From a virus (Duplodnaviria > Caudoviricetes): a DNA stretch of 60,422 bases. The notes beneath the pieces were generated by a model, which saw only the letters and a program-made list of their open reading frames with translations, was not told the DNA's origin and did no database searches. Numbering within the stretch: the stretch's first letter is position 1; every line of letters begins with the position of its first letter. The position numbers were made by a program, and so were the translations under genes. The stretch spans positions 1 through 60,422 of IMG/VR virus record IMGVR_UViG_3300032047_000013. One strand, written 5' to 3'. Positions 5,101-60,422 of this stretch are shown piece after piece.

Positions 5101-5101
5101 G

Positions 5102-5109: not shown

Positions 5110-5116
5110 ATACCCC

Positions 5117-5326
5117 ATGAAAACAAACCGACACAAACAAATCAAGATGAATATAGATAGACTTCTTGAGCAGAACGCTAAGTATCAAGCCGCACATAAC
5201 TGCGTGACAAACACACCAGAGAGGCAGAAAGAGATCGACGATTACTGCAATAAGAACTTTATTGATCCCATCAGAAACATTGATTGTCGGACTCATGCCT
5301 TGATCGCCAAACAAAGCGACACATAA
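5117..5326 (+). CDS. hypothetical protein
   Basis: ORF track; has its own promoter motif. Confidence 0.6.
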   Translation: MKTNRHKQIKMNIDRLLEQNAKYQAAHNCVTNTPERQKEIDDYCNKNFIDPIRNIDCRTHALIAKQSDT

Positions 5327-5348
5327 TAAGGCATTGATCGGTTGTTTG

Positions 5349-5356
5349 TATCTTTG
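5349..5356 (+). promoter_or_regulatory. Bacteroidota -7 element TATCTTTG upstream of the M43 protease gene
   Basis: Intergenic match to TAnnTTTG. Confidence 0.6.
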
Positions 5357-5379
5357 AATGCTAATCTAATTCGAGATAC

Positions 5380-7140
5380 ATGTTCAACTTTAAGTTCATT
5401 TACTTCATCCTCATTACGCTGTGGTTTGTACAGCTGGATGAGATGTTTGGTCAGGAGGAGTGCATTCAGATGCACACCAAGACACAGATCATGGGGCTCA
5501 AGAAGAGGGCCGATGTAAACCTTGAAGATGTACAGGTTCAGACGCTGCCCATTGTGTTTCACGTTGTGCATACTGGAGCGGGCGAGCCCAACAACATTTC
5601 TGACGATCAAATCCTTTCTCAGGTAGATGTACTGAACGAGGAGTTCGCTGACAGCAAGATTCAGTTCTGCATGGCTGTGCGTGACCCTGACGGCAACCCA
5701 ACGAACGGGATAACTAGGTACGATGCCAGCTGGAACGAGGACTACGTGACTGGGGGTATAGGTAACACCCCCTCAAATCTTGATCCAGTAGGGTGGGAGC
5801 AGACGCAGCTTAAGTCAGCTGCTGGGTGCTGGAATCCTGACGAGTACATCAACTACTACGTAGTCTCAGAGATCAACGGCAATGACGGAAACAATGGAGT
5901 GCAGGGCTACGCATACCTAGGCCCGACAGGTGACTGTAGAGACGGCGTTGTTGTCCTGTACAATGCTACAGGAACCGTAGGGGTGCAGAAGCCTGGAAGA
6001 ACGTTGGGGTTTACAGGGGTACACGAAGTGGGGCACCACCTTTCTTTGTGGCATACGTTCTCCAACACATCCTCGTGTACTTCAGAAAGTAACTGTGAGA
6101 CTCAAGGCGATCAGGTGTGTGACACGCCTACCACTACCTCTAACTCCACAGCTCAGTGTGACGGTGGCGTATGCCCAGACGCCCTTGTAAACAACTTCAT
6201 GGACTACAGCTCTGAGACGTGTAAGGATGCCTTTACTGTGGGTCAGGCTGAGCGCATGCACGAGATGCTTCAGAGCAGCAGACAAGGCCTTGTAGATAAT
6301 CTAGCATGTGTGCCTGTCGTAGACTACGACGTAACCGCTGGTGCCGCCTACTACCAACAAGAGTGGTGCGACCCATACCAAGACATCTGGGTTGATGTTA
6401 TCAATCAAGGCACTCAGCCCATTCCTTTTGTAGATGTCGAGATGTTCTGTAACGGTCCCCAGGAGGTGATCACTTTGTATGACTTACCGCCTGGATCTAC
6501 TCAGGTGCTCTTCGAGGAAGTCTATGTAGAAGGCGCAGATGAGTTTACCATCCAGACAATCTCTAGCCTTGACCAGTTCCCAGACAATGATGCCTCTTGG
6601 TGGCCTCTAGACGTTACAGAAGGAGATTTCATGGAGGTGTGGGTTACACCTGATGTCTTTGGCAACGAAACGTCTTGGGAGTTGAGGGACGGAGAAGGCG
6701 AGATTGTGCTGTCTGACGGTGGCTATGGCACCAACAGCAACGATACCTTCTACTATACAGCCTGTATCTTTGATGACTGCTATGTTTTTGAGATAGAAGA
6801 CACTGCGGGTGACGGATTCTGTACGGTTGACTTTGACAATGACGGCGTATGTGACATCGGTAGTGATGGAATCCTTGCTACTGTTGGCCTTGACACATTG
6901 GTCGACACGGGCTTTGGATTGCAGTTCGATGTAATTCAGTTTGAATTCTGTAACTCACTGTCTCAGTGCAACATGGACTACAACGGTGACGGCTACATAG
7001 GCAACACCGACGTGCTTGAGTTGCTTGTAGACATGGGGTGCGTTGGTGCTTGCTACACCGATCCAAACGATGACAATGTTGTAAACATCCAAGACCTGCT
7101 GCTCATGCTTGCAAGCACTGGTCCATGCCCTAAGGAATGA
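5380..7140 (+). CDS. secreted zinc metalloprotease, M43 (ulilysin/pappalysin) family, with C-terminal dockerin/EF-hand-like repeats
   Basis: Signal peptide; LPIVFHVVH, ISDDQILSQVDVLN, HEVGHHLSLWHTF, GDQVCDTP, Met-turn NFMDYS, FTVGQAERM; C-terminal DYNGDGYIGNTD and DPNDDNVVNIQD. Confidence 0.9.
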   Translation: MFNFKFIYFILITLWFVQLDEMFGQEECIQMHTKTQIMGLKKRADVNLEDVQVQTLPIVFHVVHTGAGEPNNISDDQILSQVDVLNEEFADSKIQFCMAVRDPDGNPTNGITRYDASWNEDYVTGGIGNTPSNLDPVGWEQTQLKSAAGCWNPDEYINYYVVSEINGNDGNNGVQGYAYLGPTGDCRDGVVVLYNATGTVGVQKPGRTLGFTGVHEVGHHLSLWHTFSNTSSCTSESNCETQGDQVCDTPTTTSNSTAQCDGGVCPDALVNNFMDYSSETCKDAFTVGQAERMHEMLQSSRQGLVDNLACVPVVDYDVTAGAAYYQQEWCDPYQDIWVDVINQGTQPIPFVDVEMFCNGPQEVITLYDLPPGSTQVLFEEVYVEGADEFTIQTISSLDQFPDNDASWWPLDVTEGDFMEVWVTPDVFGNETSWELRDGEGEIVLSDGGYGTNSNDTFYYTACIFDDCYVFEIEDTAGDGFCTVDFDNDGVCDIGSDGILATVGLDTLVDTGFGLQFDVIQFEFCNSLSQCNMDYNGDGYIGNTDVLELLVDMGCVGACYTDPNDDNVVNIQDLLLMLASTGPCPKE

Positions 7141-8072
7141 AAAAACTTATCTTTTTCCTCATGCCTCTGCTCAGCTACGGGCAGTGTGACATAGAGATAC
7201 TAGGATTCGATCCTATCTCCACGGACATCATGATGGTTGTCAACGGAGGTGCCTGCTGCACTGAGTCTGACAGCATCGGAGAGTTTATCCTAGCCCTTGG
7301 GTTCAATCCTCCTCAAGACGAATACCCCTGGCCCTGCTTTGGGGATCAAGACTGGATGCTGTTGCTCTACCCTCTAGACTTCCCTGGATTTGAAATGGGT
7401 CAGGGACCTGACAACATCTATCAGACTGGAGATACGATAGCCTTCAACATTATCGAAGATACACCTCTTGCTGGAAGCGGTACGCTACAGTGCTGGGAAC
7501 AAGCCCTTCAGGAAGGTATATTCATGGAGGACTGCATGGTCATTACGGTGTGGCAGATCAACGACAGCGAAACGTTAGACGGTAGCTCCGCAGGCATTGC
7601 AGGTTGCGACTACCCAGACGAGAACATACCTAACAGCTGGCTAGAGTTTTCTATGGAGGCCAACTGTGGACCGCCTCCTCCTCCCGTACCTAACGAGCCA
7701 CAACCATGGGAGCCCGTAGAGACAACGGATACAACAGACACGTCTGGACCTCCACCACCTGAGCCGCCCAACGTAGACGACTGTAAGGACCCGTGCATAT
7801 ACGTATCCAACGTATTCACGCCTAATGGCGACTACGTGAACGACACATGGAGGCCCGTTACAAAGCCTGACTGCTGGTGGAGATGGGAATGCAAGGTCTA
7901 CAACAGATGGGGTGCTGTAGTGTGGGAGAGCTATGATCCCCGTGACAAGTGGATGGGTGAGGGAGGCCTTTCCTATGTGCCTGACGGTGTTTACCTCTGG
8001 ACGATCAGGGGAACCACCTATAGATCAACCAAGGTTGTCAGCATGCAGGGTCATATAACGGTCTTCCGTTAA
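7137..8072 (+). CDS. secreted protein with T9SS type-B CTD (gliding motility-associated C-terminal domain, CHU_C)
   Basis: Signal peptide; Pro-rich linker; IYVSNVFTPNGDYVNDTW..VYNRWGAVVWES..W.G..VPDGVYLW..GHITVFR. Confidence 0.88.
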   Translation: MKKLIFFLMPLLSYGQCDIEILGFDPISTDIMMVVNGGACCTESDSIGEFILALGFNPPQDEYPWPCFGDQDWMLLLYPLDFPGFEMGQGPDNIYQTGDTIAFNIIEDTPLAGSGTLQCWEQALQEGIFMEDCMVITVWQINDSETLDGSSAGIAGCDYPDENIPNSWLEFSMEANCGPPPPPVPNEPQPWEPVETTDTTDTSGPPPPEPPNVDDCKDPCIYVSNVFTPNGDYVNDTWRPVTKPDCWWRWECKVYNRWGAVVWESYDPRDKWMGEGGLSYVPDGVYLWTIRGTTYRSTKVVSMQGHITVFR

Positions 8073-13835: not shown

Positions 13836-16800
13836 TCACTTTCCTTTTAGATTGTTGTAAACCCTGTTGAACTCCATGATAACCTTTCTTTCCTCCTCAA
13901 AAAGCTTTTGCAGCTTAGAGGTTCTCAGAGTGTAGTCCTTTTCTCTTCTCGCTTCTCTTTTAATGGCTCTTAGCTTCTTTAGCTCTCTTTCAGATTTTTT
14001 TAATTGTCTGTCTAGCTTTTTAAGTCCGTCGTATCTGTCTCCTTTGCTGTTTCTCTGAGCCCTGCTTAGCTTCTTGTACTCTCTGCTAAGCTGAACAATT
14101 CCATCCCTTCTGTCAGCATAAAGCTCAAAGTCGTAGTACTTTGATGGCTCCCCGTATAGGGCTCTCATCATTGCAATATCATTGAACTCTACATCTATTG
14201 ATGGGTCAACTGTCTTCGCAGCTACCTTTCTGGTCGCCTCAACACCCCTGGTGATATCCCTTCCCACACCTCCAATAGCGTACTCAAACAAGTACCACAT
14301 TTTGTCTGGGTTGAAATCAACAGATCCAGATACCTCAGAAGACCCTCCTGTTGCCTCATTCATCCACCTAAAGAAACTTTGAACGCTTTCAGGTGATCTA
14401 AACGCCAACTCCGACTCTGGCTTAGGCGCCCCGAATGGTGACTGATCTGCGTGAACCTTTCCCCCGAAGTATGTTTCGTTAGCCAACACGTCAACTATGG
14501 GCTTGAATGGCGTAGGTACGGCACCCTTGCTTATAGATGTAATCAAGTCCTTTGACTGCCCGAAGCTAACTGGTGAGAACGAAGTGAGAATTGAGTTCGT
14601 CATGAACGTAACCCCAGACCAAGGCTTCCTGTGGCCCATAGCCACCTCCGTCATAGACTGACCCATGTTTGCGAATACATTGTACCCGTATGGCATAGGG
14701 ACCTTGATGTAGTTCTCTCCGTCTACCATGATAACCATGGCTCTTTCCTTGACGTAATCTGGAATCTTATTGTAGAACAACTCGTCATCCTCATCTCTGT
14801 CTGATAGAGCTATGTTAAGCATAGTAAGCATGGAGTTGAATAGAACCATGCCCCCAGCAAGCTTCTGAGGCGTAGTAATTCTTTCTCTCCCCTTGCGCGT
14901 CGTACCGTCAGCCTTCTGCTTAGGCTTAAGGGTTCCCATGGATCTAGCAAATCTAGCCGTACCCTGAACGCCAGCGTTGAAGAAGAGGTATACTGCATTG
15001 AGGACTTGTCCGTACTCTCCCTGCTTGTTGAAGTTCACTGTTACGTTCTTAGCAAACTGAGCCGACTTAGATCTGCTCACACCGTTCTTCCTCGCGGCAA
15101 CATACGCGGCCATCCTTACGCTGTTCTCAAAGGCCTCGTTGACACCCTCTACGAACTCGGCAGTGTCGCTAATCTTTCCAAAGAGCTTTTGAGCTACACC
15201 CTTGACTCCTGACTTAGGGTCTGATGTGTCTGATACGATGCCCTCTTGTATTTCCTGAATAGATTTAACGTGACTCCATCCAGTCCTTCCGCCGTCCTCT
15301 TTGAACTCTTCAAAGTACTTCTTGATCAGAGGGTCTGAATCCTTTCCTACAGAGTCTTTAAGGAATGCGCTTAGTGAAGAAGGAACCATCTTCATCATAT
15401 CCTTTACGACCTTCTGTCCGTTCAACACACCTCCCTCAATCTCCGTCTCTGCCGAGGCGTTAAATACAGCGGAGCCTATGTCCCTAACGAAGTTGTTGAT
15501 CGCAAACTCAGGACGCAGGGTAGTGTAAGACCTTCTTAACCAACCAGATAGACCCCTCATGACCTTCAGGAAGGTGTTGGTTTTAGACACCCCCATATCC
15601 CTAAGTGACTGAGCGTGAGATGGATCAGCAAACTGCATAGCCATCTGTTTCCCGTCAACCCTAACACCTACGACGTCCAGGTTGCCTATGCTTCTCTTCT
15701 CCCCCTTCTTCTCTGGATCAAATACACTCCAGACATCCTTGTTTGAATTCTCCTTTATGAGGTTGTATAGAGATTTCATAACCTCGTTCTTCTGACCTCT
15801 TACGTGAGTAGCAGCGTTCATGTGAACCGTTTGGGCGAACAGGTTGATGGCTGGCGTCTTACGGCCTTCTGCCTTCTTTATCCTGCTTCCGCTAACGTGA
15901 AAGCCTGTGCTTCCGCTGGGATATGTGCCTACGTTTTCTCCGCTTTCATCAATGGCAATACCAGCAAGTGGAACGTAATTCTTAAACATGTCCTCAAACG
16001 CATCAATCCGTGCGTCTGTCTCTAGACCGAGCTTCCGCATGGTATTTCTTGTGTCTTGAGCTATGTCTTGAATCTTCTGCCCTGCTTCTTCAAAAGCCTT
16101 AAGCTTTCCAGACTTAGCTATCTCATCAATGATTTCCTGAGCCTCAAGGTCGCTAATACCACTACCGTTGTCAACGCCTTCTCTCTCAAGGAGTAGGGCG
16201 TTTCTCTCAGGTGCGTGAAGGGCATACAGGTAGTCGGTAATGTCTTGCTCTGTGATACCGTTGTCCTTCATTATAGAAGTAATATCACTTACTCTTTCAT
16301 CGAGCTTCTCCAGGGCTGTAGCCGCCTTTCCGTACATGAGCTCCTCGGCCATCTTGAAGTCCTGACTCTCATCAACGGGTCGGCCCTTAGATTTTTCGAC
16401 GTCAGCCTGAATAAGCTCTATCTCTCTGTACTTGTTGGCCATCTTCCGAAGGAAGTTGTCTGTCACCTCTTGAACCCGACTCTTGGATCGCACATCAAAT
16501 GACTTTCCGTCGTGCTCTACTGTTGTCATAGGGTTGGCCTTTGAGAACCTTCCAGCCATCCCGCTGTCAAGCCTACCTCTTATCGAAGACCTTACGGCTT
16601 GTGCAGACTCTTCTGGCTGGAACTTTGGGTCCATCTCTGAAAGATTGGGCCACTCCTGAAGATAAGTGAGGTCCTGTTCAAATCCGTCGATTACAACCTC
16701 GAAGGGGAATGCGCTTTCTGGATTGTTACGAATAAGCACATCGTCTGCGCTTACCACAGGTATTAACTTTGCTGCTACTGCGTGACCTGACTTTGCAGCC

Positions 16801-19800
16801 GCAAGTTCGGCGTCAAGAAACTGAGCCCTAGACAAAGACAAGGAGGGTATAGACTTAAGAGCTCCTCTTTTTCTTGGTGTGGTTTTTCTTGCGTCTATGT
16901 TCAACAACAGCGCCTTCATGAAGTCATTTCTTTTTGAGAAAGAGAGCTCGTTTATACTCTGCACCTCTTTATTTATAACGTTGGAAAGTGTTTCAAATAC
17001 AGCCAGAAGGTTGTTGTTGTCTGGTATGGAGATCTTTAATCCCTTCTCCTTAATCTTCATAACGCCGTTCTTGTAAAGCTTTTCTGCGGTTGCTTGCAGC
17101 TTGTCCTTTCCTCGGCCCTCAATTACTGCTGGGTGACTCTTAAGTCTAAGAAGCACGTTTCTCAACAAATCCGTCCTTTGCTTTGACCCCCCACGTTTAG
17201 AAAAGTCCAATACGTCTTCGACGGCTTCTCTTATTTGCTTTGAAGCCACTGGATCGCTCTCAGCCACCTCCATGATCTGCCTCCAGGTTTGCTCAAAGAC
17301 TTCAGGGTTTCCGTGAACATACTCTTTACCCTGAGTAAAATAGGTGATTACAATTTTTCTGTTTCTGTTCGGAGATGCGTTGTCAGCTCTAATCGCCTTC
17401 TGTATCTTCTTCTTTGTTTCAAGTGCCTGATTTCGGTTTCTGTGAGAAAACAAAACATCGGGCTTAGTTTCTGCAACTCCAGACTTATTAGCGATCCAGC
17501 TTGAGTCGTAAGCCATCGCCACATAAATGGGATTCACCAAGCCCTTGATAAGGCCCTTAAGAGTTCCCATTACAGAGTTTGGTCTCCCCTCCATTGCCTT
17601 AAGCTGCTTCTTTGTTGGCTTCTGCGAAACCACCTCAGAAGGTGCCTTGGCAAATCTTCCCGTGCTTCTTGCGCTCTCTTGCTCTTCAGGATTTTGTTCT
17701 GCGAGCAAAGAGTGCTCTCTTTCGCTTAGGTTGAATAGCTCTGGGTACTTGGCCGTGCTGATCGTATTACCGCGCCCAAGCATATCCTGCATCTCCTCCT
17801 CTGTAATCTCTAGCTCATTGAACAGGTTAATGTTTTCGAGCTGTATCTCTGCTGCCTCAAGCTTAGCCTCTGCAAGCTGCCTCTCAAGACCCAAGGACTT
17901 TCTCACGGGGGCATCCCTTAGGATTTTATCTATAGCTGGAGCAAAGTCAAAGAAGTTGGTGTTTGAGTAATTTGGATTACTCCTCCAAGCATCTCCAGCG
18001 TCTTTTTGTACCTCTGAGGCCTTTTTTCTGATTGCGTCAACTTGGTTGCCCAACTCTAACTTCTTCTCCGTTTGGCGCTCCTGATAAGTGGAGTACCTTC
18101 TCTTAGCCTTTCCAGTTGGACGCTCTTTTGGTTGAGGAAGGATGTACTCCTGTCCATCTATATCAACACGCATCTCAGTAACTCTGTCTGGATATACGTA
18201 TGATCCGTCAGCATTGGTTCCAGCCATACCCCTGTACCAGTTGGCAAAGTGATCGTAGCTGTTGAATGGTCCTGCTGTCTTTGGCCTTCCGTATTCCCCT
18301 TGAGCCACACCGCCAGTTCTTATTACATATTCGTGGCCCTTGTATCTAACTCTAGCTCCTTCCTTTGGCCACTGAGCCTTAGCCATCCTTCCGCTGGCCT
18401 GAGTCTGATCTCCCTGGATATCTACCTGCTTGCCTCTAGTAGCTCTTTCAAGCTTCTTGCCGAGGGCGATAACGTCGTTCTCGCTCTTAATTGTTCCGCC
18501 GAGACCCATGGTGTCAAGAACCTTTTGAGCGGCCTTGATGAACCAATTCTTTTGAGACTTGTACTTTGATGGGTCGTTAGCGTAGTCAATCATGAGGCCC
18601 ATAATGGCCTCTTCCTCAAGCATAGCGGTGTCTTTGCCCTGCTCTCTGGCAGCCTTAGCCATCTGATCGACAGACATTTCAGACGCATCTATATCTCCGT
18701 AATTCTGAAGCCTTTCTCTAAGTATGGCCTCTGCAGCTTTATTCTTCTTCGCCAAAGAGATAAGGCTGTCAAACGTAGCGGCTCTCGTCTTAGAGTCTTG
18801 ACCAATAGCATTAACAAAGGCCTTGTGTGCAAACTCCTCCCTTACGGTGTTTCTTGTTGCCTTTGGACCAAGGTGTATTGTTCCATCTGGAGCCATGTAT
18901 CCATCTATCGGGCCTGCCTCCGCTCTGGTTTGCTCGTCTACGTTCCCAATGGACTCTTGAGTCTTGTGAAACACAACCTTACCCTCCTGCATCGTGTCGC
19001 TCTTGAGGCTTCCCTGAAGAGTCCTTACTTCCTCCGCGATAGTTGTATCTACTGTTTCTGACTCAAGAAGCTTTCCTCCAACATCATCGTTAAGGTCAAA
19101 CTCCTCGAAGTCATCGACAAGCTGCTCCTCTTGTGTTGGTTCTGCCTGCACAGGTTGCTGCTGAGTGTCATCCTCTATGGTAACCTCAGTTGGCTTACCC
19201 TGCTCGTCTGGGATTGCTACAGTCTCTGGCTCCGCCTTTACGCCCAGCAAGTCCCTAAGGTCTCCCTCAAGCTCTGCTTGTTTTGCAGCCGCCTCATTAA
19301 GGTCACCAAACTCTGCAGCCTCTGTAGCTGCTGTTGCTTCTGCGTCTGAGGTTTGCTCTTGAGCTTGACCGACTTCTCCGATAAGTCTTAGTGCCTCCTT
19401 CTTTCTAGCCTTCAAGGTTGCAACCTTTTGAGTTGCTGCTTCTTGAGCTTGAGGCGACTCCGCGTCAATACCTGCCCTCTCTGCAGCCTCATCTACTTCT
19501 GCTTGAGCTTGTTCTATTTCCGAATCAATGCTCTCAAGGGCCTGTGACACTTCGTCACTAAGCGTCTGCTCTTGTGGCTGAGCCTCTTCCGATACATCCT
19601 CCTGAGTCGTCTCTGCTTCAGGTGCAGAAACATCAGCTTCCTCTGACACAGACTCACCTGTTCTTGTTTGATCTTTCTTCGACTCAATGGATTCAATAAG
19701 GGCTCCACCAAAAGCTTCGTCCTCGTTCACCTCAATCTTCATCTTTTGAAGCTGATCGTAGGTGGATGTTGAGACCACATCCTCAAGAGCCTCTTTGGTC

Positions 19801-21203
19801 GTTTCTTGACCATTAAGCCTGTATGTAGGCTTCTTTACGAACGCAGAGGTTATGGCTGTGTTGGCAAGCCCACCTGGGGTTCCAGCAGTAGCCTCCAATA
19901 TGACCTCAACTCCAGACAACTCATCTCCAGCGGCTAGAGTACCAGCGACTTCACCAAGGCCTCCAACAACGCCCTCACCTCCAAGCTCTATAGCTAGTGA
20001 CTTAGCCGTTGTCTTTGTTGACTCAGCTATGACTTTCTCTGCAGTCTTAGCAACAGTTCTTGATCCTTTCGCAAGCTGAGATACTGCAACCCCTCCTACG
20101 AACTCAAAGGCTCCGATAGTAGCTCCTCTAGCTATTGAGGAGTTTCTAATTCTCTTCATTGCATCTTCATTGGACAAGATTTCTCTTAGTCTGTCTGGAG
20201 TAAGGTTTTCTGCACCTCCCGCCTCTTCAGCGAGAGCCTGAGAGAAGTACTGCATTGTCTCCATGGTTGCTCCAGCAGCGCCCATTCCTACTCGAAGAGC
20301 ATAGGGAAGCGCTGCTATGGCTGCGGCGCCCGATCCAACGGGCGTTGCTATAAGACCAGCTGTAGCCGCGCCTGCCTCTACAGTAGCCACGCCAGCTCCG
20401 AAAGCCTTTAATGACTGCTTGTTCAGCATGCTAGTTAGCGATGAAGCCATAACCTCCACCCCAACCCCTGGGTTCTTCGCCATGGCTACAAGAGCCCCCA
20501 GATATTCGTTATCGTACTTTTCTACCTCAGCATTAAAAGACTTCATAGCCTCAGAAGCCCCATGTTTCTTTTGATGATCCTCAGAAGCCTGTAGTGCTTG
20601 GATATACTCTATAGCGTCTTTGTCAGACACCTCTTCCATGTCTCTAAACACATCACCGACTTGACCATTGACCCTAATTTGAGTCATGCCGTCGGCAACC
20701 CCACGAATAGGGTGAGACAAGGCCTCTCCCATCCAACCCATCTCTTCCACGGCCTCAGACAGGGCCATAACCTTGTCTGCAGTTTTTGAGTCTTCTGCTC
20801 TAAAGGCCTCTCCAAAAGCACTCCAACCCTTCTTTACCTCGTCCCAGTTTTGATATATGTCCGCAACGGTCCTTGCCGCCATTCCAATGGGGCTAGAACT
20901 CATCTGCCCAACAGCGCTTACAGCCTCTACAGCGCTAGGTAGTCTACTCTCTGAAGAGTCCGACTTTCCAGAGGGAGCCTGAGAAACTGAAGGAGATACC
21001 CCAGAATCGTCTTTTTTTTTTACAAGAGAGTACTTCGCATCGAACTCCTCACGGCTCTTTGTGTAGAGTCCGTCACGAGTTACAACGCCAAAGACCTTAT
21101 CTCTGTAGGCTGGGTCTGCGTACTGTTCTTGAAAATCCTCAAACGACTTTGTATAGTAGCCCTCTCTTGAGAGAGAGTCGTAAAGCTTCTGTAGTTCTTC
21201 CAT
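13836..21203 (-). CDS. giant polyvalent internal-virion/ejection protein with C-terminal LPD38-like domain
   Basis: 2455 aa; Gly/Ala-rich hydrophobic region; acidic linker; zincin-like REEFAH; C-terminal NFVRD..FENSVR..TVNFNKQG..YLFFNAGVQG..YIKVPMPYG pattern. Confidence 0.75.
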   Translation of the reverse strand: MEELQKLYDSLSREGYYTKSFEDFQEQYADPAYRDKVFGVVTRDGLYTKSREEFDAKYSLVKKKDDSGVSPSVSQAPSGKSDSSESRLPSAVEAVSAVGQMSSSPIGMAARTVADIYQNWDEVKKGWSAFGEAFRAEDSKTADKVMALSEAVEEMGWMGEALSHPIRGVADGMTQIRVNGQVGDVFRDMEEVSDKDAIEYIQALQASEDHQKKHGASEAMKSFNAEVEKYDNEYLGALVAMAKNPGVGVEVMASSLTSMLNKQSLKAFGAGVATVEAGAATAGLIATPVGSGAAAIAALPYALRVGMGAAGATMETMQYFSQALAEEAGGAENLTPDRLREILSNEDAMKRIRNSSIARGATIGAFEFVGGVAVSQLAKGSRTVAKTAEKVIAESTKTTAKSLAIELGGEGVVGGLGEVAGTLAAGDELSGVEVILEATAGTPGGLANTAITSAFVKKPTYRLNGQETTKEALEDVVSTSTYDQLQKMKIEVNEDEAFGGALIESIESKKDQTRTGESVSEEADVSAPEAETTQEDVSEEAQPQEQTLSDEVSQALESIDSEIEQAQAEVDEAAERAGIDAESPQAQEAATQKVATLKARKKEALRLIGEVGQAQEQTSDAEATAATEAAEFGDLNEAAAKQAELEGDLRDLLGVKAEPETVAIPDEQGKPTEVTIEDDTQQQPVQAEPTQEEQLVDDFEEFDLNDDVGGKLLESETVDTTIAEEVRTLQGSLKSDTMQEGKVVFHKTQESIGNVDEQTRAEAGPIDGYMAPDGTIHLGPKATRNTVREEFAHKAFVNAIGQDSKTRAATFDSLISLAKKNKAAEAILRERLQNYGDIDASEMSVDQMAKAAREQGKDTAMLEEEAIMGLMIDYANDPSKYKSQKNWFIKAAQKVLDTMGLGGTIKSENDVIALGKKLERATRGKQVDIQGDQTQASGRMAKAQWPKEGARVRYKGHEYVIRTGGVAQGEYGRPKTAGPFNSYDHFANWYRGMAGTNADGSYVYPDRVTEMRVDIDGQEYILPQPKERPTGKAKRRYSTYQERQTEKKLELGNQVDAIRKKASEVQKDAGDAWRSNPNYSNTNFFDFAPAIDKILRDAPVRKSLGLERQLAEAKLEAAEIQLENINLFNELEITEEEMQDMLGRGNTISTAKYPELFNLSEREHSLLAEQNPEEQESARSTGRFAKAPSEVVSQKPTKKQLKAMEGRPNSVMGTLKGLIKGLVNPIYVAMAYDSSWIANKSGVAETKPDVLFSHRNRNQALETKKKIQKAIRADNASPNRNRKIVITYFTQGKEYVHGNPEVFEQTWRQIMEVAESDPVASKQIREAVEDVLDFSKRGGSKQRTDLLRNVLLRLKSHPAVIEGRGKDKLQATAEKLYKNGVMKIKEKGLKISIPDNNNLLAVFETLSNVINKEVQSINELSFSKRNDFMKALLLNIDARKTTPRKRGALKSIPSLSLSRAQFLDAELAAAKSGHAVAAKLIPVVSADDVLIRNNPESAFPFEVVIDGFEQDLTYLQEWPNLSEMDPKFQPEESAQAVRSSIRGRLDSGMAGRFSKANPMTTVEHDGKSFDVRSKSRVQEVTDNFLRKMANKYREIELIQADVEKSKGRPVDESQDFKMAEELMYGKAATALEKLDERVSDITSIMKDNGITEQDITDYLYALHAPERNALLLEREGVDNGSGISDLEAQEIIDEIAKSGKLKAFEEAGQKIQDIAQDTRNTMRKLGLETDARIDAFEDMFKNYVPLAGIAIDESGENVGTYPSGSTGFHVSGSRIKKAEGRKTPAINLFAQTVHMNAATHVRGQKNEVMKSLYNLIKENSNKDVWSVFDPEKKGEKRSIGNLDVVGVRVDGKQMAMQFADPSHAQSLRDMGVSKTNTFLKVMRGLSGWLRRSYTTLRPEFAINNFVRDIGSAVFNASAETEIEGGVLNGQKVVKDMMKMVPSSLSAFLKDSVGKDSDPLIKKYFEEFKEDGGRTGWSHVKSIQEIQEGIVSDTSDPKSGVKGVAQKLFGKISDTAEFVEGVNEAFENSVRMAAYVAARKNGVSRSKSAQFAKNVTVNFNKQGEYGQVLNAVYLFFNAGVQGTARFARSMGTLKPKQKADGTTRKGRERITTPQKLAGGMVLFNSMLTMLNIALSDRDEDDELFYNKIPDYVKERAMVIMVDGENYIKVPMPYGYNVFANMGQSMTEVAMGHRKPWSGVTFMTNSILTSFSPVSFGQSKDLITSISKGAVPTPFKPIVDVLANETYFGGKVHADQSPFGAPKPESELAFRSPESVQSFFRWMNEATGGSSEVSGSVDFNPDKMWYLFEYAIGGVGRDITRGVEATRKVAAKTVDPSIDVEFNDIAMMRALYGEPSKYYDFELYADRRDGIVQLSREYKKLSRAQRNSKGDRYDGLKKLDRQLKKSERELKKLRAIKREARREKDYTLRTSKLQKLFEEERKVIMEFNRVYNNLKGK

Positions 21204-24033: not shown

Positions 24034-27000
24034 TCACATCGAAGAGTCAAGGTTAGACGGCATTGAGTCAACGCCTATGCTAAGCAAAGCCCCATTAGTC
24101 TTTGGGATTGCAGCATCTACAATCAGGTACTTATCTCTAAGCTGATCCCCATAGTAGTTAGGGTCTGAAACAATAATAACATCTCTACCGTTTATATCAT
24201 CAAAAAAGTCTGTCGCAATAAACCCCTCGCTGTACTGTATGGACGCCTCGATTATGTTTTCTTTTATAGACTTAACAAAAACGACCTCTACATTAGGTAG
24301 AGAGGACATGCTTGTGATTTGATTCTCAATCCCTACAGAGATGTCTACGGACTCTCCGACATTAAAGGTGTAATCTGAGCTATTGGACAATAAGAACGTC
24401 AACGGAACAAGCTCTCCTGGGCTGCTCTGTTGAGTCAAGGTCATTGATGACAAAATGCCTACGGACTTAATGTTTGAGCTGCCACCAAGCTCACTCCTTG
24501 GGAGGTCGCTGTAAAAGGTGCCTTCTTTTTCAGTAAAACTAGTAAGGCTTGCCTTCTCATTGTCTGTCTCAAACTTCAAAGACCATTGTTCGTCACCTTC
24601 AATAAATGAAGATTTATAGGCGTGAACCGTAGCACCATTGTCATTAAATACAGACCTAAAGTGAGATACAAAGTCGTATCCATGAAATCTGTTTGGAAGG
24701 TCATTCTTGTTGTGCTCATAAAAAAATGAATCTCCATCAATTTGGTTTTTTGAAGACAAAAACGACTCGTTTACAAATGAATAATCAAGCGAATCAAATG
24801 AATAAAAAGTCTTCCAGTAGGGGTCTCCTGCCGCATTAAAGGCAACCGTGTTGTGATTAGTAGAATCTAAATTCCAGTAAGTGTCAGTAAACTGAGATAG
24901 ATTTGATCCAAGATTTGTGCTCATAGAAGAACCTCTAGAAATAATAAGCTCCCTGTTTACTGGATTGTACCCTGTAACAACCTTAAATGATACAGGATCT
25001 TCAGGTGTTTTTAAAAAGTCCCTAAAGAAGCCCCTCATCTTGTTGTTAGAAATCTCCTCTATTGATTTGCCGCTTACTCTTACAACAACCCTGTTGTCGG
25101 TGTCTGCAAAATATACATCGTTGTCTACTATTGTGACCGACTCTGGATGTCCAGACGTTCCAAAGTCATTTGCATAGCCTTGATGATTTTGAAGGACATT
25201 AGAGCTAAGTGCTAAATTTTCAACACCGTCAGCGGTTGACGTGATTGACTTATTTACAAACACGTCCGAAACCTTAGAGTCTTGAATTGCAACAAGTCTG
25301 TTTCCAACCTCAGCCATGTAGTCTATCTTTCCGTATCTCTTAGGGAGGTCATAAAAGTTGGCTGAAGAGGGGAATGAAAAAATGCTAGGCCTAAATGTTT
25401 CAGAAGAGTTCTTCTCTCCAAAAATTATTGAAGCCTCGTTTCTTGTTTCTCCAGAGTCCCTGTTGACGTAATGAATCCTTCCGTAGGATTTAGATTTAGA
25501 TCTGTATAGATCTGTTACAGAGTTTGACTCCATGAAAAATCCCCTAAACCTAGATTTAGACTTATCCTCTTCTGTTGTATTGTCACCTTCTATCAGGTCT
25601 ATAAATTCTGATGTGGCAGCATTGTACTCTCTTGCATTCTGAGGCACCGCCCTAAAGAACACATCCCCCTTGGTTACCCTGATTTTATCTGGTAGATGGC
25701 TGAGGGCGCTCTTTATTCCACGAGCACTTGTTTCGAAGTATGGCAAAAGATCCTCATCTAGGTCTGATTTCTCTGTAACTATTTCAAATACACACCTGTT
25801 TCCCCATTTGTCAACCTGATTTAAAACAGAGGCAGCGTCAAACCCATGAGCGTTTATGTTGTTTCTTAGGACCAGGAATGAGCCTGTTCTTTTGATTTTT
25901 GCATCAAAATCGTCTTCCCCCCCAACGAGCGGGTTATCTTCCTCCGATGATATCTCTTTCGTGCCCATTACGTCAAAGACAAAAGTCCTTGGGTGATAAG
26001 CTACATTTTCGTCGTCAGAAAAACTACTGATTATCCTAACCTTGTCTCCTTCCGAGAAACGATAAAGAGTTGGCTCCAGGGTGTCCTGATCTCTTGCTCC
26101 AAAAGCCTTAGTGTAGGATATTTTGCTACCCTGCAAGTAATTCATGGAAACGTATATGGAGTCGTCCTGATTCCCATTAGATCCCTTTTCAACAAAAGCA
26201 CCTCCAGAAACCATTTGAGTAAACCTTCTTGTACTAGAGGCTCCACCATAAACGATTCTCCATGATTCAGCCCATGTTGGCATAGGGTGAAAAAGCTCTA
26301 TTTCAACGTCAACGCTTCCCCTTCCATTGGCTTGTCCTTCTTGAGAGTAGTTCTGAATAGAAGATCTTTCAGAATCGGAATAACCTGGAACAAATGCGCT
26401 GTCAAGGGGGAAGACAGAACTCGCTCTGCCTTTATTGTCGTAGTACACTATCCCGAAGTTGTGAACGTCGTTTGTTTTAAACGAGTAGTCAATATCTCCT
26501 GAATCCGTTATGATAGAAACAATGTTGCCCACATCTTCAAACCCCCCTGCGCTTAAGTCAGAATTCTCAAATTCATCGTCAGAGGGGAGCATAAAGGTCT
26601 TGTCTATGTTTAGATACGGAAGATTGTCTACAACACCTATCATAGTCGTGTTCCAAACACTACCCCTTCTATTTGATACAGGCAAAGAATCTCCAGTTGC
26701 CTCCCCTCCAAACTCGTCGCCTGGGTTGTAGCTCCTTACTACCTCTGAGCTATATGAAGCCTGACTTCTTCCTCCAGGACCAGCGTCCCCATCTATAACA
26801 GAGAACGAATAAGTTCCATCATCATCGAGCGCATTCTCTCTTATGTCAAGAGTCTCGAATTTTGTTAACCATGCAAATCCGTAACCTCTAAGCTCTAGAG
26901 ACCCAGTGTTTTCTTGTTCTTCGGCTGTAACCTCGTATGGGTATGGAAGCCAGTGAACTGGGTGTCTGGGTCGAAACGTATAACTTCCAGAAAAGTTGTG

Positions 27001-29625
27001 TTTATCGTTGAGTCTTCCCTCAAGAGTCCCGTGCTGACCATTGCTGTTTTTAATGACCACATCCGCTGAAAACTCAAAATCATCCTTCCACGCTCCATAC
27101 AGTGCGTCACTTCCAGAATAAACATACCACTTTCCTATGGCTGTGGGGCCATCACCACCCTGAACCCTTCCGTTGTTTAGTATTCCAAGCTGCTCCCTTG
27201 GAGTTCCGCTGTTATCCTCAAGAGTGTTAGTTACTGACGTGTCGGTGTACGTTTGATATGAAACGTAGGTGCCGTCACTTTTTTTAACTCCAAGACCATT
27301 GCTAGCGGGGTGAGCTATGTTTGAGTTTGGCACATTGTTCCCGCTTACTGTTTTTGCAACAGGCCACCTGTAAGTAAAACTTCCGTCTTCAACCCTTCCT
27401 ACGCAAAAAGGCATAAGAGGAGTAGAGTAATAACTCCAGTTACTCAGTGTTTCCCATTCGTCGTTTGGATCCCAATCCACAGTGTCTGGATCAAGGTTCC
27501 CCTCCTCGTCTGCAAACCCATTGAAGTAAACCTCACCCTTTCTCCATTCAAAGGAATCTCCTTGGGTCCAGCTACCCTGAGATGGAAAAGAAATCATGTC
27601 TTTTCCGTTGCCGCTCATTTGAGCGGAAATGGTCTGAAGTCCAAGCCCCTCCTTTGGAGAAGGAATACATGTAAGTATGTTTTCAAACAAAGCACTTCTG
27701 TAGTATCCGTCTGGCTTAGATCCACTAAACAGCCCGCTATCAAAGTCTGAGCCGTTAGGAAAATCAAAGCTTTTGAGCTTAAACTTATAAAACAAGCTAT
27801 CCGAGTATGGGTTAGTTCCTCCGCTGCCAAAAAGAGGATCGTCTGAAGAGCTTTGAGTGCCCTGAACTTTGGATATTTTGAGGGAGTATTTGGCTCTATT
27901 TACAATGTAGTATGCAATAGGGTGGTTCCCGAACCCCCCAAAAGTTGTGGTCCATCCTCCAAGTTCTCCGTTGGGGGATGCACCGCCTTCAGATCCTCCA
28001 ATTCCACAGACCAAGTCCGCTAGATCAGAATCAGCGTCAAAGCTGTCCTTTGAGTCTAACCCAAGGTCTACAATAAGGTCCACAACGGCCTCTCCTGTTT
28101 CTAATGCTGGAGAGTCAAATACCTCTACATCATCTTCGCTTAGGTTGACAATGGACCCATCATACGACCCAGTAGATACTATTTGGTCGAATAGCGCCAT
28201 AAATGAGTCTCTTGGCAGCTCTACCGTTGTTCTAAAGGCAATCCTAAAGGATATTAGTCTCGATTGAACAATAACTGGGTTGGCTGGGGAGCTACCTATT
28301 TTTGCTTGCCACGCTGAATCACCTTCGGCTCTATTTATGTGACCAACCTGGGCTATGTTGTTTAGCTTTGTCTTTGAGTTAAAGTGCCCAAAGGCATTAT
28401 CTTTATCTCCTATGTATGGTACTCCAGCGCCGTTGCCAGAAAGATCATTGCTCTGAGGGGCAAAAGTGCTTAAGTGTCCAACGGCATTAGGAATGGTGCC
28501 TCCAAATTCCGAGAAAAAATTAGATGCCTGGGCGCTATTTATATTGCCCTGACTGTCCATGAATGGCCACGGGGTTCCAGCAGAGCCATTAAAATACCCG
28601 AAACCAGTAGGGTAGTAGGATTGAGATGAAAAAAAGTGAAGGTTTCGTTTTGGGCGAACATTAACCCTTATGTCATACAATCCAGCCTCCCCCGTCTCTT
28701 CTGGAAGGTTTGAGAAGTTTAAATGAAAGGTTGAGTGAACTTGCTTCCCTATGTTTGTGGTCCCTGTCTCAGGAGTCGCTCCACGAGCATATTCCCCAAG
28801 AGTCTGATCCATTCCCAACTCTATCTCGCCACCGACAAGATTTTCTCTTTTCTCGTTGAAAATGACAGTTGACCTTGATACAGGCTGAACCTGATCAAAG
28901 TTTTCCGTATAGTCTCCATACATCATTCTTTCTCCAACAACAGACTGAGTACCAGCCTTTTGAGGAACACTATCAAAGTTTTTATTTAGGGTTGCAGTTG
29001 ACAACACCCCATAAGTTTTGTCGTTTCTGAACCTATACGTAAGGGTTTCCAGATCCCACTCCTCTATAGACTGATTAACTTTTAGAGATACCTCATCTAT
29101 AATTTTTAAAACTCCACCATTGCCCTCCCTGAAAAGAATCCTTACTCTTATGGCTTCATTACCAATATCAGGTATGTTTATATCTGCGGCGTTCTCAAGA
29201 TCAATAACAGAGACTGAGTTCACCCCTATGCCAAACAAGGCTGTAGGGTACTCCACGTCCGACAAGGGTGATATTGCACTAACAAAACCGTCATTATAAA
29301 CAGCTTGATAGCAAAATTGAAATCCATTAGAACCCTTGAACCTGCTAGGGACTGGGAGGCCAGACGAAATGTCTGTTTCGGTGTCCCATGTTACAGATGG
29401 AGAAATCATAGGGACCCTTGTGCAGGCATCCATAAAGTCTTTTAAATCTTGAGATGAGGATTCATATCCAGTAGCATTCCCTGTAAACTCAGTATCTCCC
29501 TCTATAGACCTTCTTATGTTTATTCTCCTGGGCTCGTTATGACCATCGGTAAAAGCCAAAACGATGTCAACCTCTTCATCAGAGCCAACAAAAGGCGTGA
29601 TGTCTTTATTCTTCTGATAAGCCAT
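24034..29625 (-). CDS. tail stabilisation/muzzle protein, main part (crAss-like)
   Basis: FTDGHNEPRRINI, FQFCY..Y.DG..SAISP, VPQKA..Q..VGERMMYGDY, FGIVYYDNKGR, YGKI, FGTSGHPES, W.TFYSF, EKEG.FY motifs. Confidence 0.8.
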   Translation of the reverse strand: MAYQKNKDITPFVGSDEEVDIVLAFTDGHNEPRRINIRRSIEGDTEFTGNATGYESSSQDLKDFMDACTRVPMISPSVTWDTETDISSGLPVPSRFKGSNGFQFCYQAVYNDGFVSAISPLSDVEYPTALFGIGVNSVSVIDLENAADINIPDIGNEAIRVRILFREGNGGVLKIIDEVSLKVNQSIEEWDLETLTYRFRNDKTYGVLSTATLNKNFDSVPQKAGTQSVVGERMMYGDYTENFDQVQPVSRSTVIFNEKRENLVGGEIELGMDQTLGEYARGATPETGTTNIGKQVHSTFHLNFSNLPEETGEAGLYDIRVNVRPKRNLHFFSSQSYYPTGFGYFNGSAGTPWPFMDSQGNINSAQASNFFSEFGGTIPNAVGHLSTFAPQSNDLSGNGAGVPYIGDKDNAFGHFNSKTKLNNIAQVGHINRAEGDSAWQAKIGSSPANPVIVQSRLISFRIAFRTTVELPRDSFMALFDQIVSTGSYDGSIVNLSEDDVEVFDSPALETGEAVVDLIVDLGLDSKDSFDADSDLADLVCGIGGSEGGASPNGELGGWTTTFGGFGNHPIAYYIVNRAKYSLKISKVQGTQSSSDDPLFGSGGTNPYSDSLFYKFKLKSFDFPNGSDFDSGLFSGSKPDGYYRSALFENILTCIPSPKEGLGLQTISAQMSGNGKDMISFPSQGSWTQGDSFEWRKGEVYFNGFADEEGNLDPDTVDWDPNDEWETLSNWSYYSTPLMPFCVGRVEDGSFTYRWPVAKTVSGNNVPNSNIAHPASNGLGVKKSDGTYVSYQTYTDTSVTNTLEDNSGTPREQLGILNNGRVQGGDGPTAIGKWYVYSGSDALYGAWKDDFEFSADVVIKNSNGQHGTLEGRLNDKHNFSGSYTFRPRHPVHWLPYPYEVTAEEQENTGSLELRGYGFAWLTKFETLDIRENALDDDGTYSFSVIDGDAGPGGRSQASYSSEVVRSYNPGDEFGGEATGDSLPVSNRRGSVWNTTMIGVVDNLPYLNIDKTFMLPSDDEFENSDLSAGGFEDVGNIVSIITDSGDIDYSFKTNDVHNFGIVYYDNKGRASSVFPLDSAFVPGYSDSERSSIQNYSQEGQANGRGSVDVEIELFHPMPTWAESWRIVYGGASSTRRFTQMVSGGAFVEKGSNGNQDDSIYVSMNYLQGSKISYTKAFGARDQDTLEPTLYRFSEGDKVRIISSFSDDENVAYHPRTFVFDVMGTKEISSEEDNPLVGGEDDFDAKIKRTGSFLVLRNNINAHGFDAASVLNQVDKWGNRCVFEIVTEKSDLDEDLLPYFETSARGIKSALSHLPDKIRVTKGDVFFRAVPQNAREYNAATSEFIDLIEGDNTTEEDKSKSRFRGFFMESNSVTDLYRSKSKSYGRIHYVNRDSGETRNEASIIFGEKNSSETFRPSIFSFPSSANFYDLPKRYGKIDYMAEVGNRLVAIQDSKVSDVFVNKSITSTADGVENLALSSNVLQNHQGYANDFGTSGHPESVTIVDNDVYFADTDNRVVVRVSGKSIEEISNNKMRGFFRDFLKTPEDPVSFKVVTGYNPVNRELIISRGSSMSTNLGSNLSQFTDTYWNLDSTNHNTVAFNAAGDPYWKTFYSFDSLDYSFVNESFLSSKNQIDGDSFFYEHNKNDLPNRFHGYDFVSHFRSVFNDNGATVHAYKSSFIEGDEQWSLKFETDNEKASLTSFTEKEGTFYSDLPRSELGGSSNIKSVGILSSMTLTQQSSPGELVPLTFLLSNSSDYTFNVGESVDISVGIENQITSMSSLPNVEVVFVKSIKENIIEASIQYSEGFIATDFFDDINGRDVIIVSDPNYYGDQLRDKYLIVDAAIPKTNGALLSIGVDSMPSNLDSSM

Positions 29626-53199: not shown

Positions 53200-53273
53200 T
53201 ACACCCGCAGGGACTCGAACCCCGAACCGTCGCCTTAGAAGGGCGATGCTCTATCCAGTTGAGCTACAGGTGC
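53200..53273 (-). tRNA. tRNA-Arg(UCU)
   Basis: Cloverleaf GCACCTG/CGGGTGT, anticodon arm TCGCC-CTTCTAA-GGCGA, T-loop TTCGAGT; CCA not encoded. Confidence 0.92.
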
Positions 53274-53526: not shown

Positions 53527-53600
53527 TTGGGGCGGCGGGACTTGAACCCGCGACTTCCTGTGTATAAGACAGACGCTCTAACCAACTGAACTACGCCCCA
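53527..53600 (-). tRNA. tRNA with UAU anticodon (Ile, reads AUA)
   Basis: TGGGGCG/CGCCCCA acceptor, D-arm GTTC/GAGC, anticodon arm TCTGT-CTTATAC-ACAGG, T-arm GCGGG-TTCAAGT-CCCGC. Confidence 0.88.
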
Positions 53601-59282: not shown

Positions 59283-59338
59283 GAGTTGTAGTATAAGAGA
59301 GAAGAAGTCTTATGACTTCTCTCTTATACTACTAACTC
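59283..59338. other. long imperfect hairpin
   Basis: GAGTTGTAGTATAAGAGAGAAGAAGTC-TTAT-GACTTCTCTCTTATACTACTAACTC. Confidence 0.8.
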
Positions 59339-59395
59339 CTAAAGGGTTTGAGAAGTCGTCCTTTAGGAAGTCAAACTTCATTTAATTCATTTCCA

Positions 59396-59917
59396 ATGAA
59401 TAACTTCAATTTCTCCGACTGCCGTAAGGCAGTAAACCAAGCTTCTTTCCGTCCAACAAAGAGCCGAAAGGCTCTTGCTTCAAAGCTTCTTGCAGAAGCT
59501 TTAGAGTTCGTCGCCAACCTCGAAGAGGTTGCTGACAAGCCTTCGAAGAAGGCTAAGAAGACTCGACGTAAGTCGAGGAAGAAAGCAACTCCAACCCAGA
59601 GGGTTGCTGACAGTCAAGAAAAAGCCTTTCATGGAAAGGCTGACAGTCCAGTCAAGCCTTCGAAGAAGGCTAAGACAGCTTCCGTTAAGGAAGCTAAAGC
59701 ATCTCTGAAAGAGATGGATGAGAAGAAAGCCGTCAAGAAGACAGCGAAGCTGAAGGCCAAGCAAGTGGCTTCAGGGGTCAACGAAGTTGACAGAGTAGCT
59801 TCCTTGGAAGCTAAAATCGAGGCTCTCACCGCAGTGCTCGCTGTGCACATGGAGTCTACGACTCTGGCTTCTCCTTCTAACGAAGTTAGCCTTGACGAAG
59901 TTCCTTTCACCCTTTAA
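59396..59917 (+). CDS. Lys/Ala-rich early protein
   Basis: ATG at 59396 after an AT-rich leader; KPSKKAK occurs twice; ends DEVPFTL. Confidence 0.7.
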   Translation: MNNFNFSDCRKAVNQASFRPTKSRKALASKLLAEALEFVANLEEVADKPSKKAKKTRRKSRKKATPTQRVADSQEKAFHGKADSPVKPSKKAKTASVKEAKASLKEMDEKKAVKKTAKLKAKQVASGVNEVDRVASLEAKIEALTAVLAVHMESTTLASPSNEVSLDEVPFTL

Positions 59918-59927
59918 TCCATCGAAG

Positions 59928-60008
59928 ATGATTAACTTAATCCTTTCCTTTGCACTGGCATGCGCTGTCTTGTACTTTGAGTACAAGCTGTTGCTCCGCT
60001 ACCTCTGA
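59928..60008 (+). CDS. 26-aa hydrophobic peptide (not in ORF track)
   Basis: MINLILSFALACAVLYFEYKLLLRYL*. Confidence 0.45.
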   Translation: MINLILSFALACAVLYFEYKLLLRYL

Positions 60009-60015
60009 CCCTTTA

Positions 60016-60075
60016 GAGAGTTACGTGTATATACTCTCTGAACAGAGTGAAGAGAGTATATACACTTAACCTCTC
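60016..60075. other. long hairpin with a 15-bp perfect core
   Basis: GTGTATATACTCTCT (60025-60039) / AGAGAGTATATACAC (60051-60065), extended by GAGAGTTA/TAACCTCTC. Confidence 0.8.
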
Positions 60076-60105
60076 AATAACAAACTTCAATTAAACCCTT
60101 TCCTT

Positions 60106-60246
60106 ATGGACAAGAACCTACGCCGTCAGCTGATTGCTGACCTCCTGACATCCTCTATGGACTTCGAACTTGTGACCTGCACTGATGTGTGGGACGAGCT
60201 GACCTGCGATGAGCAGATGACCTTGGAAGACTTGATTGACTGCTGA
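60106..60246 (+). CDS. 46-aa acidic early protein (not in ORF track)
   Basis: MDKNLRRQLIADLLTSSMDFELVTCTDVWDELTCDEQMTLEDLIDC*, preceded by the CAAACTTCAATT leader. Confidence 0.65.
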   Translation: MDKNLRRQLIADLLTSSMDFELVTCTDVWDELTCDEQMTLEDLIDC

Positions 60247-60251
60247 AAGCA

Positions 60252-60309
60252 GTACAGGTACTCTGATGAGCCTTGTATAGGCGAAACACCCCCTTGGGGT
60301 GTCAGTATC
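60252..60309 (+). ncRNA. type I hammerhead ribozyme
   Basis: Stem I GGTACT/AGTATC; core CTGATGA (60263-69); stem II GCCT/AGGC; GAAA (60283-86); stem III CACCCC/GGGGTG; GTC cleavage triplet (60301-03). Confidence 0.9.
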
Positions 60310-60328
60310 AAACTTCAATTCATCTACG

Positions 60329-60422
60329 ATGACAAAACTTCAAGAACTATATTTCACCCTGCAAGGGTGGGACGGGTTCAGCGTCAAACACGACCTGAAC
60401 GAGTACGGAGGCGGAGGCTACG
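60329..60422 (+). CDS. 5' part of an early gene (truncated by the window)
   Basis: MTKLQELYFTLQGWDGFSVKHDLNEYGGGGY..., directly after the ribozyme and leader motif. Confidence 0.6.
   Translation, partial: MTKLQELYFTLQGWDGFSVKHDLNEYGGGGY

Follow-up and report, generated by a model that had tools for sequence, protein, structure and literature searches.

Close to the end of a virus record from IMG/VR, between two small + strand genes, lies a segment with the look of a self-cleaving RNA, raising the question of whether it is a hammerhead ribozyme or merely resembles one, and what it would do to the transcript that carries it. The window, by which we mean the whole stretch of DNA that was analysed, is that entire record, a linear sequence of 60,422 nt that CheckV estimates to be 98% complete. 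The sequence evidence assembled here leads us to consider it probable (at about 0.85) that 60257-60309 (+) is an active-type minimal type I hammerhead within a polycistronic + strand transcript, and that the phage is probably one of marine Flavobacteriia.

Reading of the sequence, combined with a scan using our own type I descriptor, revealed a full type I hammerhead at 60257-60309 (+), made up of the consensus core and three helices, which confirms the type I form with consensus core claimed by the first-pass annotation. The location that it had given, between two genes, was also borne out: both neighbours are small, conserved ORFs of the + strand. The elements of the site and its immediate flanks are as follows:

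60106-60246, + strand: upstream ORF of 46 aa, with its UGA stop at 60244-60246, 10 nt before stem I
60240-60252, + strand: hairpin CUGC-UGAAA-GCAG enclosing that stop codon, otherwise present only in the near-identical copy L203
60252-60256, + strand: GUACA, the proposed pseudoknot strand against loop II; A60256 is the near-invariant A described below
60257-60262, + strand: 5' strand of stem I, GGUACU (sequence reading and descriptor scan)
60263-60269, + strand: core C3-A9, CUGAUGA (sequence reading and descriptor scan)
60270-60273, 60274-60278 and 60279-60282, + strand: stem-loop II, GCCU, loop UGUAU and AGGC
60283-60286, + strand: core G12, A13 and A14 plus A15.1, GAAA (sequence reading and descriptor scan)
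60286-60292 and 60296-60302, + strand: stem-loop III, 7 bp including A15.1-U16.1, with loop CUU
60303, + strand: C17, with the predicted scissile bond C60303/A60304 at the consensus position
60304-60309, + strand: 3' strand of stem I, AGUAUC, which would become the 5' end of the downstream RNA
60310-60328, + strand: leader AAACUUCAAUUCAUCUACG, which has no Shine-Dalgarno sequence; relatives conserve it downstream of their hammerheads
60329-60422, + strand: downstream ORF, 31 aa visible, cut by the record end

Stem I contains 6 bp, one of them a G-U, and the strand order (stem I 5' strand, core, hairpin II, GAAA, hairpin III, UC, stem I 3' strand) is that of the type I topology. The cleavage triplet is GUC (60301-60303), with C17 conforming to H17 (not G) after U16.1. 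In the accessible part of a survey of hammerheads (Perreault et al. 2011, PLoS Comput Biol, PMC3088659), candidates are rejected when the N1.1-N2.1, N10.1-N11.1 or 15.1-16.1 pair is broken; here the core-adjacent pairs are all intact, specifically A60304-U60262 (1.1-2.1), G60270-C60282 (10.1-11.1) and A60286-U60302 (15.1-16.1). The ATG at 60329 is 25 nt past the predicted cut, and loop II (UGUAU) finds its complement in GUACA (60252-56), with four Watson-Crick pairs and one G-U. Thus, the core, the three stems, the cut position, the ATG spacing and the GUACA/loop II complementarity of the first-pass annotation are each present where it had placed them. Over both strands of the 60.4-kb window the descriptor found this single site, compared to 0.01 loose matches per window in 200 dinucleotide-preserving shuffles, none of which was as good as the real site. 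When the domain 60257-60309 was folded in isolation, the hammerhead was the minimum-free-energy structure, at -18.6 kcal/mol.

A search of the whole window with Rfam at gathering thresholds returned two tRNAs and no hammerhead, and the comparison with Rfam hammerhead models that had been proposed as a check on the ribozyme thus yielded no model at its gathering score. The best sub-threshold model on the site was RAGATH-1-hammerhead (22.6 bits, E 0.11, threshold 56.3), a weak alignment that arises because the model makes use of the 60240-60252 hairpin. Hammerhead_3 gave a partial match with 17.4 bits against a threshold of 48.5, the one match retained from the hammerhead clan, and in the same search, which extended to E values of 10, Hammerhead_1 (RF00163) did not reach its gathering score of 34, the window scoring below the partial Hammerhead_3 match. 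Blastn of 59300-60422 against cultured phages gave no match, and blastn of the 81-nt ribozyme region gave one weak match (E 0.2), to an uncultured Mediterranean fosmid. Among the titles listed, our literature searches found nothing relevant on marine-phage hammerheads after 2011, and no paper on the present variant under RAGATH-1.

Scores below every Rfam gathering threshold, and the lack of a match in 29 of the 50 related records described below, are what one might expect of a decayed or chance look-alike that is not catalytic and serves, for example, as a structured spacer or a protein-binding site. We regard this explanation as highly improbable. The chance expectation is at most 0.01 per window, the invariant core positions are intact in all 27 copies that were aligned, and all three helices show covariation. 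Moreover, typical members of the class to which the site belongs obtained 27-30 bits on Hammerhead_1, just under the 34 needed, indicating that the Rfam miss is a limit of the model and not a sign of decay. Indeed, when 12 loci with 19 descriptor-defined hammerheads were searched at Rfam gathering thresholds, none of the hammerheads was called. At the level of sequence, the window element has the core, cleavage-site nucleotide, helices and topology by which a hammerhead is recognized, and it falls short of the Rfam model thresholds.

The preferred reading, a genuine hammerhead, draws further support from related phages. A search with the exonuclease gene identified 182 related stretches, 80 of which were kept as loci with 6-kb flanks. 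On these flanks the descriptor matched only locus L010, plus a loose match inside a coding region of L063; searches of whole records were needed because the 6-kb flanks are too short for the homologous region. A covariance model (R1), built from 66 class members (alignment A1), was run on 50 whole related records and gave 29 matches in 21 of them, with up to four copies per genome (G028). Of the 26 records with a completeness of 90% or more, 15 gave at least one match.

We aligned 27 distinct sequences, the window's own included. The invariant core was intact throughout, N7 being U or C and one copy carrying an extra base after A9. All three stems were 100% paired in the 27 copies and 99.5-100% paired in the 66 class members, percentages that are inflated because the alignments were chosen or fitted by structure-aware tools. 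Both sides had changed at four, three and two pairs of stems I, II and III, respectively. The covariation score of 0.407 was reached by none of 500 shuffles, which gave 0.129, and it was at most 0.07 when the partners were slid by 1-3 columns. The hammerhead fold put forward from the window alone is therefore upheld by its homologues, which keep all three stems by compensatory changes.

The R1 search gave no match in 29 of the 50 related records, and in L080/L081 a homologue of the 46-aa ORF is joined directly to the next gene, without a hammerhead. On these grounds the hammerhead is, as judged from sequence, dispensable for this phage type. A different arrangement was seen at L010 551-701 (record G008), where the predicted cut at 594 is followed 42 nt on by a tRNA-like gene, not an ORF; L010 636-701 scored 36.2 bits with the Rfam tRNA model, and ARAGORN found no tRNA.

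The site also belongs to a wider class. An IMG/VR pattern that fixed nothing but the core, two bases of the loop and the pair that closes stem II matched at least 116 stretches, and type I stems I and III, which the pattern does not impose, were found in 118 of 134 among the matches listed. In the 110 unique sequences among the matches listed, stem I usually has 6 bp and stem II 4-5 bp, an A stands just 5' of stem I in 109, and the AA just 3' of stem I is present in 99 and 94 at its two positions. The outer end of stem I is closed by G-C in 64 of the 66 A1 class members. Loop II of the window has a U at position 3, where 100 of the 110 among the matches listed have an A. This pattern of conservation suggests the near-invariant A, the AA 3' of stem I and the UGANU loop II as candidates for a contact of stem I with stem II. 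An ATG-led ORF of at least 30 aa begins 12-35 nt past the cut in 85 of the 110 among the matches listed, with a median of 25, and the 25-nt spacing of the window copy is entirely typical of the class. The window copy is an ordinary, typical member of a very common phage ribozyme. Four IMG/VR phage contigs (L106, L160, L189 and L194) carry three to four hammerheads of the class within a few kilobases; at ~4230-4300 of L106, two apparently stand in tandem, a few nucleotides apart.

The genes on either side recur with the ribozyme in relatives. Neither the 46-aa ORF nor a 189-aa ORF matched a PHROG or Pfam family. Of the 30 hammerhead rows examined, 7 have a homologue of the 46-aa ORF directly before the hammerhead. 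The downstream gene encodes proteins of 119-140 aa in relatives, and its family matches phrog_17808 alone (6.8e-5), the function of which is unknown. This family follows the hammerhead in 9 of the 30 rows and is present in 7 of 32 records (E <= 1e-19), all seven of which have hammerheads beside or near the gene. The order of 46-aa ORF, hammerhead and the same downstream family recurs with different stem sequences, those of L205 being GGCAUA/UAUGUC and GCGC/GCGC. In 29 of the 30 rows the stop codon of the upstream ORF ends at most 20 nt into the ribozyme or at most 13 nt ahead of stem I, and in 28 of the 30 an ATG lies 23-27 nt past the cut. The upstream ORF ends on the core UGA (CUGAYGA) in 7 of the 30 (L201_1501, L204_1501, L206_1501, L209, L210, L211 and L226), such that a translating ribosome would need to unwind stem I and the core.

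One component of the first-pass annotation, a probable loop II pseudoknot, did not hold up: the complementarity is real in the window copy, but it is not conserved among relatives. The full 5-bp pairing is present in 2 of the 27 distinct copies, namely the window and the near-identical L203. Counting outward from stem I, the first pair, A-U, can form in 27 of 27 copies and the following ones in 18, 11, 8 and 15, with no consistent covariation. The five-pair register is found in 5 of the 110 unique sequences among the matches listed. In the same 110, the longest helix irrespective of register averaged 3.25 compared to 3.20 in a flank-swap control, and helices of at least 5 bp numbered 15 compared to 14.5, with 245 of 500 controls having at least as many. 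A mutual-information test of loop II against each flank showed nothing beyond a subfamily effect. The 5-bp pairing between loop II and the 5' tail is thus most likely incidental to the window copy.

The alternative is that the ribozyme is as described and that the GUACA/UGUAU pseudoknot is a lineage-specific tertiary clamp that speeds cleavage. The five pairs are contiguous in a register that abuts stem I, and L203 retains the pairing; L108, L171 and L185 pair five of five in register with different sequences. In addition, pseudoknots between stems I and II have been described in all three hammerhead types, in ~40% of representatives, in the part of the survey available to us (PMC3088659). The clamp is nevertheless confined to 2 of the 27 copies, and these offer no covariation because the window and L203 share their sequence. 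L202 and L178, whose stems and loop are identical or almost identical to those of the window copy, have the flank AAUCA and form two pairs only. Class-wide, pairing is at the level of the swap control and carries no mutual information beyond the subfamily effect, and an isolated 5-bp duplex would be worth just ~-1.9 kcal/mol. Taken together, these data make a clamp unlikely.

The same 5' bases enter a competing structure. When 12 nt of the 5' flank were included (60245-60315), the minimum-free-energy fold was not the hammerhead but an alternative at -22.5 kcal/mol compared to -20.1 kcal/mol, a gap of 2.4 kcal/mol. The competing helix being the more stable, the window copy could fold less efficiently than its relatives; and since this helix draws on the same 5' bases, the flank could help or hinder cleavage or leave it unaffected. 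One might propose that the 5' flank is an attenuator, in which AGUACAGG, made up of the tail and the first two bases of stem I, forms a helix with CCUUGUAU, which covers loop II and the 5' strand of stem II, trapping part of the transcripts in an inactive state and so setting the ratio of coupled to uncoupled messages. Exactly this helix is the minimum-free-energy structure of 60245-60315, and eight more of the 27 copies have a non-hammerhead fold that is more stable by at least 1.8 kcal/mol. However, nearest-neighbour energies leave out the tertiary stabilization of the hammerhead, which is itself the minimum-free-energy fold in 12 of the 27 copies; the remaining copies differ by 0.2-3.6 kcal/mol and have no conserved alternative helix. 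Given that the helix of the window is kept neither in sequence nor by covariation, we consider both the attenuator and the message ratio that it would set distinctly improbable.

Under the favoured interpretation, a self-cleaving hammerhead with no conserved clamp or switch, the nascent RNA would fold its three helices round the core and cut itself between C60303 and A60304. The topology being type I, nearly the whole ribozyme would stay on the upstream RNA, which would retain stems II and III and a 2',3'-cyclic phosphate, and the message of the 46-aa ORF would thereby gain a structured 3' end. The downstream RNA would consist of 5'-OH-AGUAUC, the conserved leader AAACUUCAAUUCAUCUACG and the AUG, and so would keep only six ribozyme bases. 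Such a cut would uncouple the two cistrons and provide the downstream gene with a short, defined, unstructured leader of 25 nt. In E. coli, RNAs with a 5'-OH end are spared the decay that a 5'-monophosphate stimulates. We infer from the sequence that the + strand is transcribed here and that its RNA is cut in vivo; the stability or the translation of the RNA may change as a result.

Parts of the stretch are contained in 22 sequencing runs. Contigs of four RNA-library runs, from three studies, cover the site at a depth of 2-3, in libraries that may also hold DNA. The contigs X5 and X6, from two RNA-library runs, span the cleavage site, contigs being unable to show RNA ends. In one run, two contigs end at ~60299 and begin at 60310; these are different variants, and their ends are not at 60303/60304. 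The RNA-library contigs also include loop III variants that preserve stem III.

The leader that follows the ribozyme is found elsewhere among the + strand genes, next to a further structure upstream of the 46-aa ORF:

60020-60070, + strand: inverted repeat of 20 nt, 95% complementary, with an 11-nt spacer

This repeat is conserved at the DNA level in five relatives, and the leader motif AAACTTCAATT lies 3' of it, at 60082. The sequence AAACTTCA(A/T)TT is present at 59373, 60082 and 60310, 19-24 nt before three consecutive + strand starts, with exact copies at 60082 and 60310. Genome-wide and with mismatches allowed, it occurs 27 times compared to 26.9 by chance; because the count is at the chance level, the signal lies in the position of the leader and not in its frequency. 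Long, near-perfect palindromic hairpins, at 59288-59332 and 60020-60070 of the window and in the relatives L198-L214, stand just upstream of AAACTT(C/T)AA, a leader found ~20 nt before early-gene ATGs. Their arms are 17-24 bp long with spacers of 11-12 nt, the loop is often GAACGTAGTGA and the folding energies lie between -25 and -34 kcal/mol. The window end, taken together with 21 related loci of 3 kb, has 72 leader-motif sites, of which 21 come after a hammerhead, 43 after a strong fold (mostly these hairpins) and 8 after neither.

A tentative and rather doubtful proposal is that the early genes of this phage group share the leader AAACUUCAA, ~20 nt before the AUG and lacking a Shine-Dalgarno sequence, and that one of two interchangeable modules always stands in front of it: a type I hammerhead, or a long, conserved and near-perfect palindromic hairpin. 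The accompanying suggestion, which we hold just as loosely, is that the hammerhead would be a host-independent device giving the leader a free 5' end identical to the one made by the hairpins. The hairpins could create the AAACUUCAA leader end as promoters or as nuclease sites. If true, the phage would be selecting for 5'-end-proximal loading of ribosomes on a defined leader, in a host without Shine-Dalgarno pairing.

The layout of the genome bears on how the flanking genes are to be named. Genes on the + strand extend from ~59348 to the record end and over 1-8072, and those on the - strand over 8069-58561. The + strand block carries the exonuclease and primase/helicase genes, and the - strand carries those for the portal and large terminase. 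Since replication-type genes thus sit on the + strand and portal and terminase on the - strand, 'early', the label applied in the first-pass annotation, is a reasonable one for the + strand genes as far as gene content can tell.

The - strand also carries two giant ORFs, at 13836-21203 (2455 aa) and 24034-29625 (1863 aa), the latter matching a virion structural protein family. As a candidate virion RNA polymerase, the 2455-aa protein matched only PHROGs of unknown function (profiles of 2800-3900 aa) and had no sequence relative in the PDB; such an identity would bear on the question of the hairpins as promoters. The two tRNA genes are at 53200-53273 and 53527-53600 (-), with Rfam scores of 65 and 68.7 bits. 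At the other end of the record, roughly the first 75 nt of the window are 74-89% identical across dozens of relatives and the adjoining DNA is not; this segment resembles the 3' end of a conserved gene truncated at the record boundary. The hammerhead region and the exonuclease gene lie several kilobases apart in relatives. Because of this separation and the conserved 1-75 end, the record may be missing more than the 2% estimated by CheckV.

Several features point to the host. The closest cultured phages by primase/helicase, at no more than 33% identity, infect Maribacter, Cellulophaga, Flavobacterium and Nonlabens. A CHU_C type IX secretion domain occurs in one ORF of the window, and the leaders have no Shine-Dalgarno sequence. 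TAnnTTTG, which we take to be the Bacteroidota -7 promoter element, is enriched in the window, with 54 sites compared to 37.4 expected and with 0 of 100 shuffles as high. A host within Flavobacteriia is likely on the basis of these four observations. At 5380-8072 (+), a Peptidase_M43 metalloprotease-like ORF (586 aa) is followed by the ORF with the CHU_C sorting domain; these ORFs are unusual cargo for a replication-side phage operon and hint at a Bacteroidota host.

These findings add a well-supported natural hammerhead to a phage lineage that has no cultured close relative, and they bring to light an abundant phage type I class that Rfam misses at its gathering thresholds. The class has a fixed design, in which the stop codon is at or just before the ribozyme and the cut is ~25 nt ahead of the next AUG. 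This design is useful in annotating the operon structure of uncultured phages, and it offers compact natural parts for use as insulators. Hammerhead biology as known is unchanged by the present finding.

Among the Rfam families, Hammerhead_1 (RF00163) represents the same ribozyme class and topology as the window site, with its threshold unreached. The RAGATH-1 hammerhead (RF03152) resembles the site in its type I topology and in having a small hairpin 5' of stem I, a hairpin that among the 27 copies only the window and L203 possess. The consensus of the RAGATH-1 model has a one-pair stem II, whereas that of the window site has 4 bp; this difference and the score of 22.6 compared to 56.3 bits exclude membership of the family.

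With respect to function alone, two analogies can be drawn. The early genes of phage T7 are separated by RNase III sites, which need the host enzyme, and RiboJ is a synthetic, engineered insulator. In both, as proposed here, a polycistronic message is cut to give each cistron a defined 5' leader that does not depend on the sequence upstream. The T7 sites use a host enzyme and RiboJ is engineered, whereas the RNA of the window would cut itself.

The closest natural counterparts are the hammerheads of phages and prophages. In its accessible part, the survey of Perreault et al. (PMC3088659) describes hammerheads of all three types, in their hundreds, from bacteria and prophages, so that intergenic phage hammerheads and pseudoknots in natural forms, both invoked in the first-pass annotation, have published precedent. 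Clusters of prophage hammerheads in that account flank single genes and were proposed to turn long phage transcripts into gene-length mRNAs (PMC3088659). The HHphage hammerhead of the haloviruses HF1 and HF2, as presented there, lies 13 nt before the start codon of an early gene, and a mapped transcript 5' end falls within 3 nt of its cleavage site (PMC3088659). On that description, HHphage differs from the window site in having a variant core with a 2-nt insertion, an archaeal virus as its carrier and a spacing of 13 nt, compared to a canonical core and 25 nt here. As they are characterized in the same part of the survey, the phage and prophage type I hammerheads share with the window site the consensus core, the three helices, an open stem I and a position between small phage genes, as well as the proposed transcript-cutting role and, in the present relatives, several copies per genome (PMC3088659). 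The exact subclass may already be listed in the supplementary alignments of that work. Measured against what this part of the survey contains (PMC3088659), the window ribozyme differs in nothing essential from the phage and prophage type I hammerheads, its own setting being marine Flavobacteriia-type phages whose leaders have no Shine-Dalgarno sequence.
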